From IMG/VR virus record IMGVR_UViG_2974697560_000001: 64,000 nt of DNA; one strand, given 5' to 3'. The translations under genes and the position numbers were made by a program. This document shows, in pieces, positions 15,168 through 47,588 of this stretch; the first letter of the stretch is position 1, and each line of letters begins with the position of its first letter. Source of the stretch: a virus. Lineage: Duplodnaviria; Heunggongvirae; Uroviricota; Caudoviricetes. The notes below the pieces were generated by a model. The model ran no database searches and was not told the DNA's origin. It worked only from the letters and a program-made list of their open reading frames with translations.

Positions 15168-15689
15168 ATGACGGTACTCCTAAGAACAATTCATGGTTCG
15201 CATCTGTACGGTCTCGCTCACGCAGGTTCGGATAAAGACATCTACGAAGTAGTTGCTACGAAGCGGACCAAGCGGAAGCGCAATATTAAGCAAACCATCG
15301 TGAATGGAATTGACAAGACGGTCGTTGACCTCTCGACATTCATGCACATGGTTGACGAATGCGTACCTCAAGCACTTGAAGCGCTATGGACGCCGGTACC
15401 AGATGTGGATGAAATCCACCAGTTCCGGACACAATATCGAGTGAATCGCGCCAAGATGAAGGAAGTATACATTCGTACTGCTCTGAACTTCGCCAAGCAT
15501 GAAGACGTAAAACGAAAGCGACATGCTATTCGTCTCCTTCTAAACCTTGGTGAGGCCCTGGAATACGGTAAGTTTAATCCAAGGCTGTCCACTATGGACA
15601 AGTTCATTCTCCGCTCATCACTCGGAGAATCTGGAGCATATGAGGATGTCTTTCTGGGCGTTCTCGATGAAGTGCAAAAGTGGGTCTGA
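15168..15689 (+). CDS. minimal nucleotidyltransferase (Pol-beta/MNT-like fold)
   Basis: HGSHLYGLAHAGSDKDIY matches the GS...SDxD NTase signature. Confidence 0.55.
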   Translation: MTVLLRTIHGSHLYGLAHAGSDKDIYEVVATKRTKRKRNIKQTIVNGIDKTVVDLSTFMHMVDECVPQALEALWTPVPDVDEIHQFRTQYRVNRAKMKEVYIRTALNFAKHEDVKRKRHAIRLLLNLGEALEYGKFNPRLSTMDKFILRSSLGESGAYEDVFLGVLDEVQKWV

Positions 15690-15702: not shown

Positions 15703-15779
15703 TGGGGCGTATACCCTCACTCTGATAAAGTGTAGAAAGGTTAATCGGTTACATGTGGGTTCAATTCCCACCGTCCCAA
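15703..15779 (+). tRNA. tRNA-like element; T-arm and acceptor are clear, D/anticodon fold unresolved (possible GAT loop)
   Basis: acceptor TGGGGCG/CGTCCCA, T-arm GTGGG-TTCAATT-CCCAC, CACT-CTGATAA-AGTG hairpin. Confidence 0.3.
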
Positions 15780-23617: not shown

Positions 23618-25270
23618 ATGTCAAACGCACTTAACACTGCTGCCAAGGGTCTGAACAAGACTCCTCAGTCTCAGAAGGCTAAGGCAGGTCAGGTAAAGAA
23701 CAACGCTGGTGGATTCGTCTTCCAGGTTTCTGACCAGGCTCGCCTAGAGCGATTCCTGATTCTGGGTGTTGATGGTGGCACATATTACGTCAAGGAGAGC
23801 ACTCACGCTCGTTCCAACGTACAATTCCTCAACGAGATGATTGAGCGAGACGAAGCCTCTGTACTGAACACCATTGTGGACGTGTCCGTCAATGGTCGTG
23901 CATACAAGCAGTCTCCTGCCCTGTTCGCTCTAGCCTCTGTCATTGCCAATGGTAAGGACAAGCAGGCGGTCAAGGCGGTATTCAATCGTGTCGTTCGTAC
24001 AGGCACTCACCTGTATGAGCTTCTGAACTACCTTACTTCAATGAACGTTGGATGGGGTCGTTCAAAGCGAGAGATTGTTGCTTCTTGGTTCGACCGAGAT
24101 GCTGACAAGCTGGCTTACCAGGCGGTCAAGTACCGTTCTCGTAAGTTTGGTGAGCAGACTTGGACGCTCCGAGACGTAATGCGTCTTTCCCACCCACGAG
24201 ATGTGAACACATCTGTTGCAGATTTCGTTCTCGGCAAGCCTCACGATGCTACCGATGACCTTCGGGTTATCGAGGGCTTCAAGAAGATGCAGAGGGCTCA
24301 GTCTGTCGAGGACGTTCACAGCGTTCTCCGTGAGTACGAGATACTTTCATGGGAGACAATCCCAACTCAGTTCCTCAAGGACGTGAGTGTATGGAAGCGA
24401 ATCTTCGCTAACGGACAGCTCCGTGGCCAGGCTCTTGTTCGAAACATCACTCGCCTTGCGCGAATTGGTGCTTTCCAGGACATGCGCTTTGCTGCTGCGT
24501 ATGCAGGACAGCTCACAAATCAGGAGATGATTGTACAGACTCGTCTGCACCCAATCAACTTCCTGAATGCGTCTGTCGTGTACAACGAAGGCCAGATGAA
24601 GACCGTAAGGGACCGCTGGGGCTTCGAGCGCGAGGAGCGTGTAAAGGACTGGACAACTGAGAGTGTTATTGCGGATGCCCTCAATGAGGGATTCCACAAG
24701 GCATTCAAGGCTGTCGAGCCTGCCGGTAAGCGAACGATGCTGGCTCTGGATGTATCAGGCTCCATGAGTGCAAAGGCTAACGGTCTCGACCTTAGCTGTG
24801 CTCAGGTTTCTGCTGCAATGTCTATGGCCATTGCTCGTACCGAGCCTGCTCACATCATCCGTGGATTCACGTCCAATGGATATGGCTGGTCTGGTCGCAA
24901 CAGTGACCTCACCGACCTTGGTATCAGCGCTAAGACAGACCTTGCTACGGCAATGCGTAATGTCCAGCGTCATAACTGGGGCGGTACGGACTGTAGCCTT
25001 CCAATGCGTTGGGCTCTGGACCGTGGAATTGAAGTAGACACGTTCATCATTATCACCGATAATGACACGTGGGCTGGTGAAATCCACCCATTCCAGGCGC
25101 TCAAGGAGTACCGTAAGAAGACTGGCATTCCAGCTCGTCTGGCAGTTCTGGGAGTTCAGGCAACTGAATTCACCATCGCTGACCCAAGCGATGCAGGAAT
25201 GATGGACTTCGTAGGGTTTGACAGCAATGCACCTCGCGTGCTGGCTGACTTCTCCGCAGGTCGCATCTGA
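23618..25270 (+). CDS. rsr: Ro60-related protein (TROVE domain) with C-terminal vWA/MIDAS domain
   Basis: GGFVFQVSDQARLERFLILGVDGGTYYVKE TROVE N-terminus; LALDVSGSM MIDAS; 550 aa. Confidence 0.85.
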   Translation: MSNALNTAAKGLNKTPQSQKAKAGQVKNNAGGFVFQVSDQARLERFLILGVDGGTYYVKESTHARSNVQFLNEMIERDEASVLNTIVDVSVNGRAYKQSPALFALASVIANGKDKQAVKAVFNRVVRTGTHLYELLNYLTSMNVGWGRSKREIVASWFDRDADKLAYQAVKYRSRKFGEQTWTLRDVMRLSHPRDVNTSVADFVLGKPHDATDDLRVIEGFKKMQRAQSVEDVHSVLREYEILSWETIPTQFLKDVSVWKRIFANGQLRGQALVRNITRLARIGAFQDMRFAAAYAGQLTNQEMIVQTRLHPINFLNASVVYNEGQMKTVRDRWGFEREERVKDWTTESVIADALNEGFHKAFKAVEPAGKRTMLALDVSGSMSAKANGLDLSCAQVSAAMSMAIARTEPAHIIRGFTSNGYGWSGRNSDLTDLGISAKTDLATAMRNVQRHNWGGTDCSLPMRWALDRGIEVDTFIIITDNDTWAGEIHPFQALKEYRKKTGIPARLAVLGVQATEFTIADPSDAGMMDFVGFDSNAPRVLADFSAGRI

Positions 25271-28014: not shown

Positions 28015-28089
28015 GCGCCGTTGACGGGAACTGGCATACCTAGTTGACTTAGAATCAACTGCTTGGGAGTTCGACTCTCCCACGGCGTA
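28015..28089 (+). tRNA. tRNA with anticodon TAG (Leu by anticodon) but a class-I short variable arm
   Basis: acceptor GCGCCGT/ACGGCGT, anticodon arm GTTGA-CTTAGAA-TCAAC, variable TGCTT, T-arm GGGAG-TTCGACT-CTCCC. Confidence 0.55.
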
Positions 28090-28228
28090 CTCCATAACTA
28101 CAAAGACAAGGATGCACATGGCAGCCTGCCCAAAGGGTGGTAAGCACGAATGGAAGATGTGGTCTGGAAAGTATCGTTGTCGCAAGTGTGGTGAAACAAG
28201 TAAGATACAGCCTACATAGGTTGTTTAT

Positions 28229-28302
28229 GCGTCGGTAGCCCAATGGCAGGAGGCACCAGTCTTAGGAACTGGACAGTGTGAGTTCGAGTCTCACCCGGCG
28301 TA
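28229..28302 (+). tRNA. tRNA with anticodon TAG (Leu by anticodon), class-I architecture, second copy
   Basis: acceptor GCGTCGG/CCGGCGT, D GCC-CAATGGCAGGA-GGC, anticodon arm CCAGT-CTTAGGA-ACTGG, T-arm GTGAG-TTCGAGT-CTCAC. Confidence 0.6.
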
Positions 28303-28356
28303 CTTTGATGGTAAACGCGATGCCATCGAATGCACACAGGGTCGCTCCCAGTGTGA

Positions 28357-35587: not shown

Positions 35588-35589
35588 CT

Positions 35590-35658
35590 TGCAGATTAGT
35601 GAAACGGTATCACGCTGGGCTCATAATCCAGAATTCCTGTTCGAATCAGGGTCTGCCC
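35590..35658 (+). tRNA. tRNA with CAT anticodon (Met or Ile2-type), unpaired position 1-72 and 4-bp T stem
   Basis: acceptor TGCAGAT/GTCTGCC (T1.C72 mismatch), D GTGA-AACGGTA-TCAC, anticodon arm CTGGG-CTCATAA-TCCAG, T CCTG-TTCGAAT-CAGG. Confidence 0.5.
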
Positions 35659-35703
35659 CCACGTAACAACAAAACAATCAATGTAAGACAACAAGGAGAT
35701 AAA

Positions 35704-36287: not shown

Positions 36288-36369
36288 GCATGAGCGGCGA
36301 AGTTGGAGAGACGCGGTGGTCTGTAAAACCATTCCTTCGGGTGAGTCAGTTCGAATCTGACCTCATGCA
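36288..36369 (+). tRNA. tRNA-Tyr (GTA), class II
   Basis: acceptor GCATGAG/CTCATGC exact, D GCG-AAGTTGGAGAGA-CGC, anticodon arm GTGGT-CTGTAAA-ACCAT, long variable arm, T-arm GTCAG-TTCGAAT-CTGAC. Confidence 0.75.
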
Positions 36370-36425: not shown

Positions 36426-36497
36426 GCATGTAAGCCAGGGATAAGCTAGGCGGGCCTGTAAAGCCCTACCTCGATGGTTCGAATCCGTCTACATGCA
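36426..36497 (+). tRNA. second GTA-anticodon tRNA with a class-I 5-nt variable arm
   Basis: acceptor GCATGTA/TACATGC exact, loop CTGTAAA, T-arm GATGG-TTCGAAT-CCGTC; D and anticodon stems each have a mismatch. Confidence 0.5.
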
Positions 36498-36499
36498 CG

Positions 36500-36571
36500 G
36501 TGACGTTGTTGTAATGGTGGCATAGAAGATTGTGACTCTTCCAGAGGCGGGTTCGATTCCCCCACGTCACA
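36500..36571 (+). tRNA. tRNA-His (GTG)
   Basis: acceptor GTGACGT/ACGTCAC exact with G at -1, anticodon arm GAAGA-TTGTGAC-TCTTC. Confidence 0.7.
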
Positions 36572-38742: not shown

Positions 38743-38944
38743 CTCATCACCTGGGGATGCCTTGGTTTCGACTGGGGTGGATGACTTTAGTTTGCAGCCT
38801 GACATTGAGGAGATGTCATTAAAAAGCCTCAACCCTATAAATGCCAACTCTAAGTTCGCATTCGCTCTTGCTGCCTGACGGTAGCTGAGCGGGGCTAGTG
38901 GGCGGCCTGGCAACAGAATAGCCCACCACAAACTTTCTTGTAAC

Positions 38945-39018
38945 ACCCCTTGACACATGGCTGTGTATAGACTACTGTTTGAAGCATCAGGACGCGGGTT
39001 CGACTCCCGCCATCTCCA
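38945..39018 (+). tRNA. tRNA-like: T-arm GCGGG-TTCGACT-CCCGC plus a 3' tail, 5' acceptor unresolved
   Basis: orphan T-arm upstream of the next CDS. Confidence 0.2.
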
Positions 39019-39039
39019 CTTCCTATTAAGGAGTAAAAA

Positions 39040-43041: not shown

Positions 43042-44142
43042 ATGAAGTTCACCAAGATTTTCTCTCAGGACTTGCTTGACCAGATGGTCAACGAGGGCTT
43101 TGTTCGGGTGCAGACTCATCCGGTTCTCCCTCTGCGAATCCTGAACTACTCCGAGAAGGCGCAGTTCGCTGGCAAGTGGAACGCATGTACGCTTGCTTGT
43201 CGTGGCCTTATCATTGACGAGTTTGACAACGTCATTGCTCGTCCGTTTGAGAAGTTCTTCAACATGGGGGACTCTCATGCTGCTGACATTGACTGGAACG
43301 CTCCGGTTGAGGTTACGGACAAGAAGGACGGCTCTATGGGCATCCTTTACTCCGTAATGCCTTACAGTGACGCGATTCCGCCTTACGGATTCCAGTACGG
43401 AATTGCTACGCGAGGCTCTTTCCAGTCTGACCAGGCAATCCACGCCACGAAGCTGTGGCTGGAGCGCTACAAGAACACTGCCGTCCCTCACGACTGGACG
43501 TTCATTTTCGAGATTGTCTACCCTGACAACCGAATCGTCCTGGACTACGGGGACATGGATGACCTTATCCTTCTGGGTGCGGTAAACAAGGAGCACGGCT
43601 ACGTGTATGGTCCTCGTGAGGCTTCGGTTTTGCTGGATTGGCAGGGGCCGGTGACCGAGGTGTTTGATTACAAGAACATTCACGAGGCTGTTGGTGCGGA
43701 CTACCGTCCCAACGCTGAGGGTCTTGTAATCCGCTCTGGCTCTAAGATGGTCAAGCTAAAGCAGGCTGACTATGTTGAGCTGCACCGACTGATTTCAATG
43801 CTTTCAGAGCGCTCTGTATGGAGTCAGCTCACTGAGGGCAAGACGATTCTGGAGATTTGTGAGGCTCTGCCTGACGAGTTCCACCAGTTCGTCAAGGATG
43901 TCGGTGGCAAGCTGCTCAGCGACTACGAGGAGATTGAAATTAAGGTGCGTGGAATCTTCCACAACCTTCTTTCCTCAATGGATGAGGGCTTCACACGACG
44001 TGACTTCGCAATGAAGGCCAACGGTGTGGACCTCTACCGTAGCCACATGTTCAACCTGCTTGACGGCAAGAGCATCGATGAGCTAATCTGGAAGCAGCTC
44101 AAGCCCGCTGCAAAGACGGAGGATGGCTACCCTGTTGGGTAG
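43042..44142 (+). CDS. RNA ligase, T4 Rnl1 (RnlA)-like
   Basis: CRGLIIDEFDNVIARPFEKFFNMGD aligns to the Rnl1 N-terminal signature; TDKKDGSMG is a KxDG adenylation motif; 366 aa. Confidence 0.8.
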   Translation: MKFTKIFSQDLLDQMVNEGFVRVQTHPVLPLRILNYSEKAQFAGKWNACTLACRGLIIDEFDNVIARPFEKFFNMGDSHAADIDWNAPVEVTDKKDGSMGILYSVMPYSDAIPPYGFQYGIATRGSFQSDQAIHATKLWLERYKNTAVPHDWTFIFEIVYPDNRIVLDYGDMDDLILLGAVNKEHGYVYGPREASVLLDWQGPVTEVFDYKNIHEAVGADYRPNAEGLVIRSGSKMVKLKQADYVELHRLISMLSERSVWSQLTEGKTILEICEALPDEFHQFVKDVGGKLLSDYEEIEIKVRGIFHNLLSSMDEGFTRRDFAMKANGVDLYRSHMFNLLDGKSIDELIWKQLKPAAKTEDGYPVG

Positions 44143-44676: not shown

Positions 44677-45582
44677 ATGGCAACGCTTCTCATTCTCCGG
44701 GGTGTCCCTGGATGTGGTAAGAGCACTTTCGCCCATCAGTGGCTCATGGAGGGCGAGCGACGTGCCCGTGTAAACCGTGATGACATCCGTATGCAGTTCT
44801 TCGGCAAGGAGACTGGTGTGGATGAGAACATGGTTACACAAATTGAGCATATGCAGGTTGACAGTCTGCTTAAGGCTGGATACTCTGTGGTGGTCGATGA
44901 CACGAACATCCGCCACGCTTACATCAAGGCTTTCGTCAAGATTGCCAGTAAGCATGGTGTGCCTGTTGCGGTAAAGCAGTTCGATGTGGACCTCAAGGTT
45001 GCCATTGAGCGCAATGCTGGCCGGGCGGCACAGGGTGGTCGTGACGTTCCTACTCCTGTCATTGAGAAGATGCACAAGTCTCTCAAGTCAAGTGGACAGT
45101 TCACGCGCAAGCTGATTGAGGAAAGCTACTGTAGCTCTCCTGTTGGCAAGCCTTACGTTCGGCCGGTAGGCAAGCGGAAGATTTACCTCTTTGACATTGA
45201 TGGTACTCTTGCCAGCATGTCTGACAGGTCTCCGTTTGACTGGTCTCGCGTAGGAGAGGATGACCCTCGTAGGCAGGTCGTACTAACTGCTCAGGCACTC
45301 GCAGAGGCAGGTTACGACATTGTAGTTATGAGTGGTCGTGACTCTAGCTGCCGTGAAGAAACAATCGCTTGGCTGGAGTTCTACGATGTTCCTTTCTGTG
45401 ACCTCTTCATGAGGGCAGAGGGTGACATGCGTAAGGACAACATCGTCAAGCAGGAATTGTTTGACCAGCACATCCGTGACTTCTACGATGTTGTGGCCGT
45501 CTTTGACGACCGCCAGCAAGTAGTTGACATGTGGCGTGACATGGGCGTAGACTGCTTCCAGGTTGCGCCTGGAGATTTCTGA
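44677..45582 (+). CDS. polynucleotide 5'-kinase/3'-phosphatase (T4 Pnk-like)
   Basis: N-terminal GVPGCGKST P-loop kinase; C-terminal IYLFDIDGTL HAD DxDGT phosphatase. Confidence 0.8.
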   Translation: MATLLILRGVPGCGKSTFAHQWLMEGERRARVNRDDIRMQFFGKETGVDENMVTQIEHMQVDSLLKAGYSVVVDDTNIRHAYIKAFVKIASKHGVPVAVKQFDVDLKVAIERNAGRAAQGGRDVPTPVIEKMHKSLKSSGQFTRKLIEESYCSSPVGKPYVRPVGKRKIYLFDIDGTLASMSDRSPFDWSRVGEDDPRRQVVLTAQALAEAGYDIVVMSGRDSSCREETIAWLEFYDVPFCDLFMRAEGDMRKDNIVKQELFDQHIRDFYDVVAVFDDRQQVVDMWRDMGVDCFQVAPGDF

Positions 45583-46496: not shown

Positions 46497-46578
46497 GCGC
46501 CCATGGTGGAATGGTAGACACACTAGACTGAGACTCTAGGCTCGAATGAGCGTCCGGGTTCGACTCCCGGTGGGCGTA
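46497..46578 (+). tRNA. tRNA-Leu (GAG), class II
   Basis: acceptor GCGCCCA/TGGGCGT, anticodon arm CTAGA-CTGAGAC-TCTAG, variable GCTC-GAAT-GAGC, T-arm CCGGG-TTCGACT-CCCGG. Confidence 0.75.
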
Positions 46579-47511: not shown

Positions 47512-47587
47512 GGCTCTGTAGCAGAATCAGGTATATGCGCCGGTCTCAAACACCGGGTCAATGTGGGTTCGAGTCCCATCAGGGCTA
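47512..47587 (+). tRNA. tRNA with anticodon CAA (Leu by anticodon) but class-I architecture
   Basis: acceptor GGCTCTG/CAGGGCT, anticodon arm CCGGT-CTCAAAC-ACCGG perfect, variable GTCAAT, T-arm GTGGG-TTCGAGT-CCCAT. Confidence 0.55.
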
Positions 47588-47588
47588 C

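Follow-up and report, generated by a model that had tools for sequence, protein, structure and literature searches.

Canonical bacterial tRNA-Leu belongs to class II, in which the variable region exceeds ~10 nt and forms a stem-loop; an example is the chromosomal tRNA-Leu(UAG) of Actinacidiphila (Streptomycetaceae; L161:7676-7761, 83 nt). For E. coli tRNA-Leu, A73 has been described as crucial, the A15-U48 Levitt pair, G18G19, and A20a as essential, and the anticodon and long arm as dispensable to LeuRS (PMC9976931). Armless E. coli tRNA-Leu variants summarised in that review are reported to be still leucylated and edited (Asahara 1993, 1998; Tocchini-Valentini 2000; Larkin 2002). For Aquifex tRNA-Leu, the orientation of the arm is reported to matter.

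Class-I-shaped leucine tRNAs also occur in nature. Animal mitochondrial tRNA-Leu and tRNA-Tyr have this shape and are charged by bacterial-type synthetases, with A73 and A14 as the human mt-tRNA-Leu(UUR) determinants. These mitochondrial tRNAs differ from the phage genes described here in their unrelated lineage, their often degenerate cores, and their dedicated mitochondrial synthetases. In Mycobacterium genomes, cluster-encoded tRNA-Leu(TAG) was remarked to have a short variable loop (PMC6582537), and a 2026 paper reported variable-arm differences in M. avium tRNA arrays. Beyond such passing remarks, our literature search found no dedicated or systematic description of armless phage tRNA-Leu. 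The short-arm leucine type is common among phages and seldom described.

Here we compare three short tRNA-Leu genes and one short tRNA-Tyr gene of a Streptomyces phage with these systems. The best explanation of the sequence evidence is that the leucine genes probably encode working leucine isoacceptors in class-I shape, and that the short tRNA-Tyr is likely a second tyrosine acceptor or functional RNA.

Short-armed tRNA genes in Streptomyces phage Samisti12

The window, the whole stretch of 64,000 nt that was analysed (49.3% G+C), matches Streptomyces phage Samisti12 (NC_042012) at 100% identity; subtracting 59,894 from a position in that record gives the window position. ARAGORN called 42 tRNAs (13417-57716) and a tmRNA in the window. 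The short genes and two class II controls are as follows.

28015..28089, + strand: tRNA-Leu(UAG), class-I shape (ARAGORN; Rfam, 41.2 bits; GenBank tRNA-Leu)
28229..28302, + strand: tRNA-Leu(UAG), class-I shape (ARAGORN; Rfam, 55.2 bits; leucine signature present)
47512..47587, + strand: tRNA-Leu(CAA), class-I shape (ARAGORN; Rfam, 53.8 bits; leucine signature present)
36426..36497, + strand: tRNA-Tyr(GUA)-like gene, 72 nt (Rfam, 32.0 bits; GenBank tRNA-Tyr)
46497..46578, + strand: tRNA-Leu(GAG), class II control, 82 nt, 14-nt variable arm (ARAGORN; Rfam)
36288..36369, + strand: tRNA-Tyr(GUA), class II control, 82 nt, 11-nt variable arm with UUCG loop

All four short genes are already present in GenBank NC_042012, as two tRNA-Leu(tag), one tRNA-Leu(caa), and one tRNA-Tyr(gta). 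ARAGORN placed the two Leu(tag) genes at 28015-28090 and 28229-28303 and the Leu(caa) gene at 47512-47588, counting 4, 5, and 6 nt, respectively, in their variable regions, and made no call at 36426-36497. Genes were assigned to Rfam family RF00005 if their full-model score reached 29 bits, the gathering score. All four genes exceed this score over model positions 1-71, with E values of 1.6e-7 (28015), 2.3e-11 (28229), 2.1e-10 (47512), and 4.9e-5 (36426), the last of them only with its D arm skipped. Along the three leucine genes the Rfam model aligns end to end, giving the same anticodons and no long arm, with 5-6 nt separating the anticodon stem from the T stem.

The leucine genes are 74-76 nt long, and their variable loops of 4-6 nt read UGCUU (28015), ACAGU (28229, 5 nt), and GUCAAU (47512, 6 nt); ARAGORN gives 4 nt for 28015 because it adds a sixth pair to the anticodon stem. 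A total length of only 74-76 nt makes a class II arm impossible, and none of the four short genes (72-76 nt) has a variable region of more than ~10 nt forming a stem-loop. The long-armed tRNAs of the window (Leu(gag), Tyr(gta), and all three Ser) have variable arms of 11-21 nt. An earlier sequence-only reading of this DNA had assigned short arms to Leu(TAG) at 28015 and 28229, Leu(CAA) at 47512, and Tyr(GTA) at 36426, and long arms to Leu(GAG) at 46497 and Tyr(GTA) at 36288. The two long-armed assignments are borne out by lengths of 82 nt and variable regions of 14 and 11 nt, and the three short leucine assignments by both ARAGORN and Rfam; support for 36426 is weaker, coming from Rfam with ARAGORN silent. 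The covariance model, which could have contradicted that reading, revealed neither a long arm nor a different anticodon in the short genes.

With canonical class II tRNA-Leu the short leucine genes share A73, a 3-bp D stem, a D loop of AAYUGGYAxA type, U48, the T loop, and anticodons of the Leu box, and they are 71-74% identical in pairwise comparisons to the class II tRNA-Leu(UAG) of Actinacidiphila. They depart from it in that 4-6 unpaired bases replace its 4-bp variable stem-loop. The anticodon loops of 28015, 28229, and 47512 (CUUAGAA, CUUAGGA, and CUCAAAC) comprise 7 nt with U33 and a Leu-box anticodon. Gene 28015 has the first pair G1.U72, discriminator A73, and, unlike canonical bacterial tRNA-Leu (almost always G37), A37. 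Its D arm, of the 'GACGG..GGCAUAC' family, is poor, with one inserted G and a C11.C24 mismatch. Position 37 of 28229 is G, and its D arm is of the 'AGCCCAAUGGCAGGAGGC' family.

The two UAG genes had been taken as a tandem pair that suggests selection. They are 73% identical and differ in D-arm family, and each is about as close to chromosomal Streptomycetaceae tRNA-Leu(UAG) as to the other (73%). Tandem duplication was rejected on these grounds; the suggestion of selection is upheld by the conservation of both genes well above their flanks, described below. Between them, at 28118-28219, lies a 33-codon ORF (MAACPKGGKHEWKMWSGKYRCRKCGETSKIQPT) whose Cys/His spacing is like that of a small zinc ribbon and which is annotated at the same place in phage Bmoc.

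Leucine identity elements are retained without the long arm

All three short leucine genes have the discriminator A73, as do 71 of the 73 distinct class-I Leu sequences from viruses. The tertiary core (A14, A15:U48, G18G19, A20a, a large D loop, and a 3-bp D stem) is likewise present, shifted by an insertion in 28015. To quantify this, we defined a leucine signature (A73, a D stem not exceeding 3 bp that bears a loop of 10 nt or more, A14A15, GG, and U48) and applied it to every ARAGORN call from two matched scans, one viral and one bacterial, with these results.

Bacterial class II Leu: 101/109 (93%)
Viral class II Leu: 92/112
Viral class-I Leu: 63/73 (86%)
Class-I Leu on bacterial contigs: 7/7
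Viral non-Leu tRNAs: 14/840
Bacterial non-Leu tRNAs: 0/120
Ser tRNAs: 0/86

Overall, fewer than 2% of non-Leu tRNAs carry the signature. Within the window it is found only in 28229, 47512, and the class II Leu(gag) at 46497; in 28015 every element is there, displaced by one inserted base and with the 11:24 pair broken, and the strict definition fails. Among 1,020 distinct class-I-length tRNAs, the D-arm motifs of 28015 and 28229 occur exclusively with Leu anticodons (19/19 and 13/13), namely UAG, UAA, CAA, AAG, and GAG.

Isotype models gave a less clear picture. Our home-made HMMs, anticodon-masked and trained on 1,400 ARAGORN calls, classified 26 of 43 window tRNAs correctly; at this accuracy they ranked Leu first for 28015 (by 15 bits) and 47512, and returned a tie for 28229 (Lys 28.7, Leu 27.7, His 27.5). 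Since these models were too inaccurate for identity assignment, they were replaced by the explicit signature and the D-arm motif counts. With tRNAscan-SE, Leu ranked first for Leu_TAG, Leu_CAA, and Leu_TAA of phage Sf14 (PMC12482277). This phage was described as Moogle-like, and the tRNA-Leu of Moogle is a short-arm relative of 28229, from which we infer that the Sf14 leucine tRNAs belong to the same family. When all complete E. coli genomes were searched by blastn with 28229-28302, nothing matched.

The tie for 28229, together with the missing class II arm, is what might be expected if a different synthetase charged the short-arm tRNAs and CUA, UUG, and UAY were partly recoded. Such a change of identity is most improbable given the full leucine identity set, the exclusive pairing of these tRNA bodies with Leu-box anticodons across viromes, the need of SerRS for a long arm, and the top rank of Leu for the putatively related tRNAs of Sf14. 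The alanine determinant G3.U70, which would be a further sign of altered charging, is absent from the short-arm tRNA sequences of the window. Of the acceptor identity elements that the earlier reading had proposed to check, A73 is present in all four genes.

That reading had also regarded the amino-acid identity of these genes as uncertain and had offered charging with another amino acid, decoys for anticodon nucleases, or unusual isoacceptors as explanations. For the leucine genes the doubt is largely removed by the retained LeuRS identity set; with the Leu-only D-arm motifs and the codon match described below, this set favours unusual isoacceptors over the other two options. For the short tRNA-Tyr, with its odd D arm and a TyrRS that contacts the long arm, the doubt stands.

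By the identity rules of E. coli and Aquifex LeuRS, here carried over to a Streptomyces host, the host LeuRS would leucylate the three short tRNAs, since what a bacterial LeuRS reads is A73 together with the tertiary core. The parts of this core that would be read are A14, the A15:U48 Levitt pair, the way G18G19 is placed, A20a, and the contacts between D and T loops. The two UAG tRNAs would then decode CUA and CUG, and the CAA tRNA UUG. In lacking the long arm while keeping A73 and the tertiary core, the phage tRNAs resemble the engineered or selected armless variants of E. coli tRNA-Leu. Those variants are laboratory constructs assayed with E. coli LeuRS, whereas the phage genes are natural, conserved, and known from sequence. 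Short phage tRNA-Leu may be regarded as a natural experiment on the dispensable parts of a class II tRNA.

Leucine codon use matches the phage tRNA set

Codons were counted in 45 annotated genes, mostly from window positions 7300-48900 (8,249 codons). Leucine is encoded by CTT (29%), CTG (23%), CTC (21%), CTA (13%), TTG (13%), and TTA (0.3%). The leucine anticodons of the phage (UAG twice, GAG, and CAA, with no UAA) fit the codons that are used and skip the one that is avoided. CTA, CTT, and TTG are rare in high-G+C Streptomyces, and a host of 72% G+C is expected to serve the CUA, CUG, and UUG codons of the phage poorly. The phage, at 49% G+C, makes heavy use of the very codons that its short leucine tRNAs are predicted to read, and we infer that these tRNAs are charged and used in translation. 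Since CTA and TTG jointly account for 26% of leucine codons, recoding would alter hundreds of positions, a further argument against a changed identity. Decoys outside translation are likewise disfavoured for the leucine genes by the retained LeuRS core elements and by the codon match.

A separate observation concerns TTA, which is nearly missing (2 of 627 leucine codons) despite the 49% G+C content and the free use of CTA and TTG; no tRNA-Leu(UAA) is encoded. In Streptomyces, TTA is read by the developmentally regulated bldA tRNA.

Conservation and replacement of leucine tRNA genes among related phages

The tRNA region of Samisti12 was compared with those of phages Tomas, Yaboi, Bmoc, LukeCage, and Evy. 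Gene 28015 is 100% identical to its counterpart in Evy, with flanks at 50-76%, and 28229 is 98.6% identical; the flanking DNA of both UAG genes ranges overall from 50% to 89%. With identity this far above that of the flanks, both UAG genes are under purifying selection as judged by comparison of the two genomes. Leu(caa) is of class I in all compared phages, and in the orthologues of 47512 in Evy, LukeCage, and Bmoc both strands of the anticodon stem have changed in ways that keep it paired, one instance being C27:G43 turned into G27:C43.

These patterns bear on the idea that the short forms are decaying pseudogenes, that is, broken class II copies that lost their arm and their function. The disrupted D stem of 28015, the silence of ARAGORN at 36426, and the missing annotation of the short tRNA-Tyr in half of the GenBank records could be read in this way. 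We consider decay very unlikely, since conservation lies far above that of the flanks, stems of both Leu(CAA) and the short tRNA-Tyr show compensatory changes, and the leucine families reach phages of Actinobacteria and Enterobacteria as well as many virome contigs.

The class of the leucine gene in a given slot is not fixed. The Leu(gag) slot (46497 in Samisti12) holds a class II gene in five phages and a class I gene in Tomas, and the second Leu(tag) slot holds a class I gene in Samisti12 and Evy and a class II gene (78-80 nt) in Bmoc, Yaboi, and LukeCage. The leucine genes of the other class in these slots are located as follows.

L246 18597-18672: GAG, class-I (Tomas)
L247 1209-1290 and L248 1468-1547: UAG, class II (Yaboi, LukeCage, Bmoc)

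Slots that differ in class also differ in D arm, so that genes were replaced and not trimmed in place, and the presence of a leucine tRNA of the other class in the same slot of relatives indicates that genes of the array are swapped between families. In-place deletion of the arm between orthologues was accordingly rejected, as the class-switched slots of Tomas and of Bmoc, Yaboi, and LukeCage hold a gene of another family. Ser tRNAs are long-armed in all compared phages, which usually also keep at least one long-armed Leu and a long Tyr.

Short-armed tRNA-Leu is widespread in viruses

To estimate the distribution of short-armed tRNA-Leu, IMG/VR and bacterial/archaeal contigs were scanned with one pattern that runs from the anticodon loop to the T loop with a gap that fits either class, yielding at least 120 loci in each collection. 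Among the matches listed, Leu(UAG) was of class I in 39 and class II in 60 viral cases, and of class I in 5 and class II in 102 cases on bacterial and archaeal contigs. Short-armed Leu(UAG) is thus enriched ~8-fold in viruses among the matches listed (39/99 vs 5/107; Fisher p = 4e-10). Leucine genes with other anticodons in the same viral loci, which the pattern did not select, comprised 39 of class I and 52 of class II among the matches listed, so that short forms account for 78 of 190 (~40%) in 120 IMG/VR loci among the matches listed. In the same loci and again among the matches listed, 72 of 74 Ser and 38 of 38 Tyr tRNAs have a long arm. A scan for Tyr(GTA) gave 5 class-I-spaced genes out of 121, two of which are eukaryote-type genes of giant viruses.

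The resulting order of arm loss, Leu >> Tyr > Ser, is as predicted by synthetase recognition rules. The long-arm rule for tRNA-Leu therefore fails in phages, where ~40% of viral Leu among the matches listed are armless with the LeuRS identity core kept, and holds almost without exception for Ser and Tyr, in line with those rules. For phage annotation this calls for caution: short leucine tRNAs should not be read as mis-assigned or recoding. Phage T5 was considered as an experimentally studied example of the short-arm type and rejected, since every one of its Leu, Tyr, and Ser tRNAs is long-armed.

Distant relatives of 28229-28302 found by BLAST (80-87% identity) are all annotated as tRNA-Leu and all 74-77 nt long; they include genes of Mycobacterium cluster-C phages (CAG), Gordonia phage Sixama, Rhodococcus phage Dorin, and enterobacterial phage Moogle. 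Across distant phages the short leucine body is kept and the anticodon varies (UAG in Samisti12, CAG in ET08, and GAG and CAA in Tomas). The short leucine genes of Samisti12 probably belong to a large armless pool that moves among phages and mobile tRNA arrays, within which the anticodon switches freely inside the Leu box. Four of the five bacterial class-I Leu(UAG) genes lie in tRNA arrays (5-31 tRNAs per 8 kb) among the matches listed, as do the Mycobacterium cluster genes. The short-loop tRNA-Leu(TAG) of the mobile Mycobacterium clusters represents the same phenomenon and the same sequence pool; it differs in residing on bacterial chromosomes and plasmids instead of a Streptomyces phage, and its description is a one-sentence remark without an analysis of identity or distribution.

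The anticodon loop of 28015 also differs from that of bacterial CUN-reading leucine tRNAs, having A37 in place of G37, the m1G37 site. Among the matches listed, A37 is present in 60 of 96 viral and 9 of 105 bacterial-contig Leu(UAG) genes.

A structurally aberrant tRNA-Tyr-like gene

The short tRNA-Tyr (36426..36497) lies 56 nt downstream of the long tRNA-Tyr (36288..36369). Its minimum-energy fold is a cloverleaf with a short variable loop of 5-6 nt, G1:C72, A73, and a conserved C27.U43 mismatch. Its D region (AGCCAGGGAUAAGCUAGG) is non-canonical and nearly invariant, and no standard numbering fits it. A BLAST search returned 88 records, all from Streptomyces phages, about half of which leave the gene unannotated; its position is always between the long Tyr and His genes.

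In a gapless alignment of nine sequences (seven distinct), 94% of the cells of the cloverleaf are paired, and in eight pairs both partners change. Covariation scores 0.546, compared with 0.20 in shuffled alignments, and none of 500 shuffles reached this value; when the partners are slid along the alignment, pairing falls to 27-41%. The acceptor pairs 2:71, 3:70, 6:67, and 7:66 turn over. G1:C72, A73, the loop CUGUAAA, and C27.U43 are invariant, as is the 18-nt D region save for one U/C change. A motif scan of IMG/VR yielded one further acceptor variant, again with G1:C72, A73, and GUA.

Bacterial tyrosine identity rests on A73, U35, and G1-C72, and the tyrosine determinants are thus kept in the short gene: every variant has A73, G1:C72, and the anticodon G34 U35 A36. 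The long variable arm and canonical D arm of tRNA-Tyr are both missing. Bacterial TyrRS contacts the long arm, and deletion of the variable loop from the tRNA-Tyr of a T5-like phage abolished its rescue of infection in E. coli (PMC12673091).

Uncharged decoys or sponges for anticodon nucleases or for tRNA-binding defence proteins, acting outside translation, have also to be weighed, mainly for this gene. The non-canonical, invariant D region and the conserved C27.U43, combined nonetheless with a perfectly conserved CUGUAAA anticodon loop, would suit such a role, as would the constant position beside a canonical Tyr; a decoy role has been suggested in the literature for the tRNA-Tyr of phage T6. 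However, G1:C72 and A73, which are charging determinants, stay invariant while other acceptor pairs turn over, and we regard the decoy role as improbable. The short tRNA-Tyr, in which the three known bacterial tyrosine determinants are kept, is instead most likely an additional tyrosine acceptor of aberrant structure, or at the least a tRNA-like RNA that functions and is under selection. It is a rare and strongly constrained exception, the unusual item among the four genes.

Possible causes of arm loss

Neutral loss, in which the arm disappears where the synthetase has no need of it, fits the data. It is also possible, although we put this forward tentatively, that arm loss was selected: it would strip from the tRNA the handle or cut site of toxins directed at class II arms, the phage copies would outlive the Leu and Tyr tRNAs of the host, and normal charging would be compatible with this. 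Rather doubtful, in our estimate, is the specific proposal that arm loss in the tRNA-Leu of phages and in the short Tyr of Streptomyces phages is an adaptive counter-defence, with LeuRS and TyrRS still charging, that evades PtuAB of Septu and retrons, MenT/AbiE nucleotidyltransferases, and VapC52-like RNases. An escape from host toxins by way of arm loss would be plausible. PtuAB (retron-Eco7, Septu) cuts tRNA-Tyr within the variable loop, and T5-like phages escape it by means of a tRNA-Tyr with a different variable loop. That tRNA resembles the short tRNA-Tyr in being a phage tRNA-Tyr whose variable region, at a known defence cut site, is unlike that of the host; it differs in that its arm is longer, not missing, and in that deletion of the arm abolished rescue. 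The MenT3/AbiEii-type nucleotidyltransferase depends on the long arm in tRNA-Ser and shows weak modification of one tRNA-Leu, and VapC52, which acts on tRNA-Ser, also counts among the toxins that bind or cleave class II arms. A bacterial Schlafen was considered as an arm-directed nuclease and rejected, as the one studied cuts the anticodon arms of class I tRNAs.

The phage itself encodes a T4-type Rnl1 and Pnkp pair for tRNA repair.

43042-44142, + strand: T4-type RNA ligase 1 (Pfam PF09511, 54.9 bits)
44677-45582, + strand: polynucleotide kinase-phosphatase (Pfam PF25109 and PF13671)

These genes, together with the frequent A37 in place of G37 in viral Leu(UAG), show that conflict directed at tRNAs matters for these phages. 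The viral enrichment of short Leu(UAG) among the matches listed is in keeping with selection for arm loss, as is the location of four of five bacterial cases in tRNA arrays, which have been proposed in the literature as anti-defence elements. On the other hand, no known toxin has the variable arm of tRNA-Leu as its main target, phages usually retain at least one long-armed Leu and a long Tyr, and neutral loss under relaxed constraint accounts equally well for the order Leu > Tyr > Ser. The comparison offers a link, open to testing, with the increasing number of defence systems found to target the variable arms of tRNAs. If the counter-defence reading were true, deletion of the variable arm would be a general and previously unrecognised means of phage escape beside mutation of the anticodon loop.

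Other features of the tRNA region

Several further observations concern the tRNA array as a whole. A G1.U72 wobble is the first acceptor pair in 15 of 42 window tRNAs (13417-57716), a frequency at which we rejected it as a mark specific to leucine. CCA is encoded by none of the 42 tRNAs, each of which has a single C after the discriminator, so that all window tRNAs depend on a CCA-adding enzyme. The tRNA-His (36500-36571) has A73 and a T at -1, without an encoded G-1:C73, the pair that normally defines bacterial histidine identity. A second tRNA-Met(CAT) at 35589-35660 directly abuts the first Met gene and has an unpaired T1.C72 and C73, the former being reminiscent of the mismatched 1:72 in bacterial initiator tRNA.

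Interspersed with the tRNAs is a set of RNA-repair and quality-control genes (15168-15689, 23618-25270, 43042-44142, 44677-45582, and 38753-39021), consisting of an RlaP-family nucleotidyltransferase, a Ro60 orthologue (TROVE and vWA), the T4-type RNA ligase 1, the polynucleotide kinase-phosphatase, and the tmRNA, whose tag reads ANSKFAFALAA. A weak additional Rfam tRNA-like match (30.8 bits), absent from ARAGORN and GenBank, lies at 15703-15779 between the RlaP-like nucleotidyltransferase gene and an FtsK-like gene.
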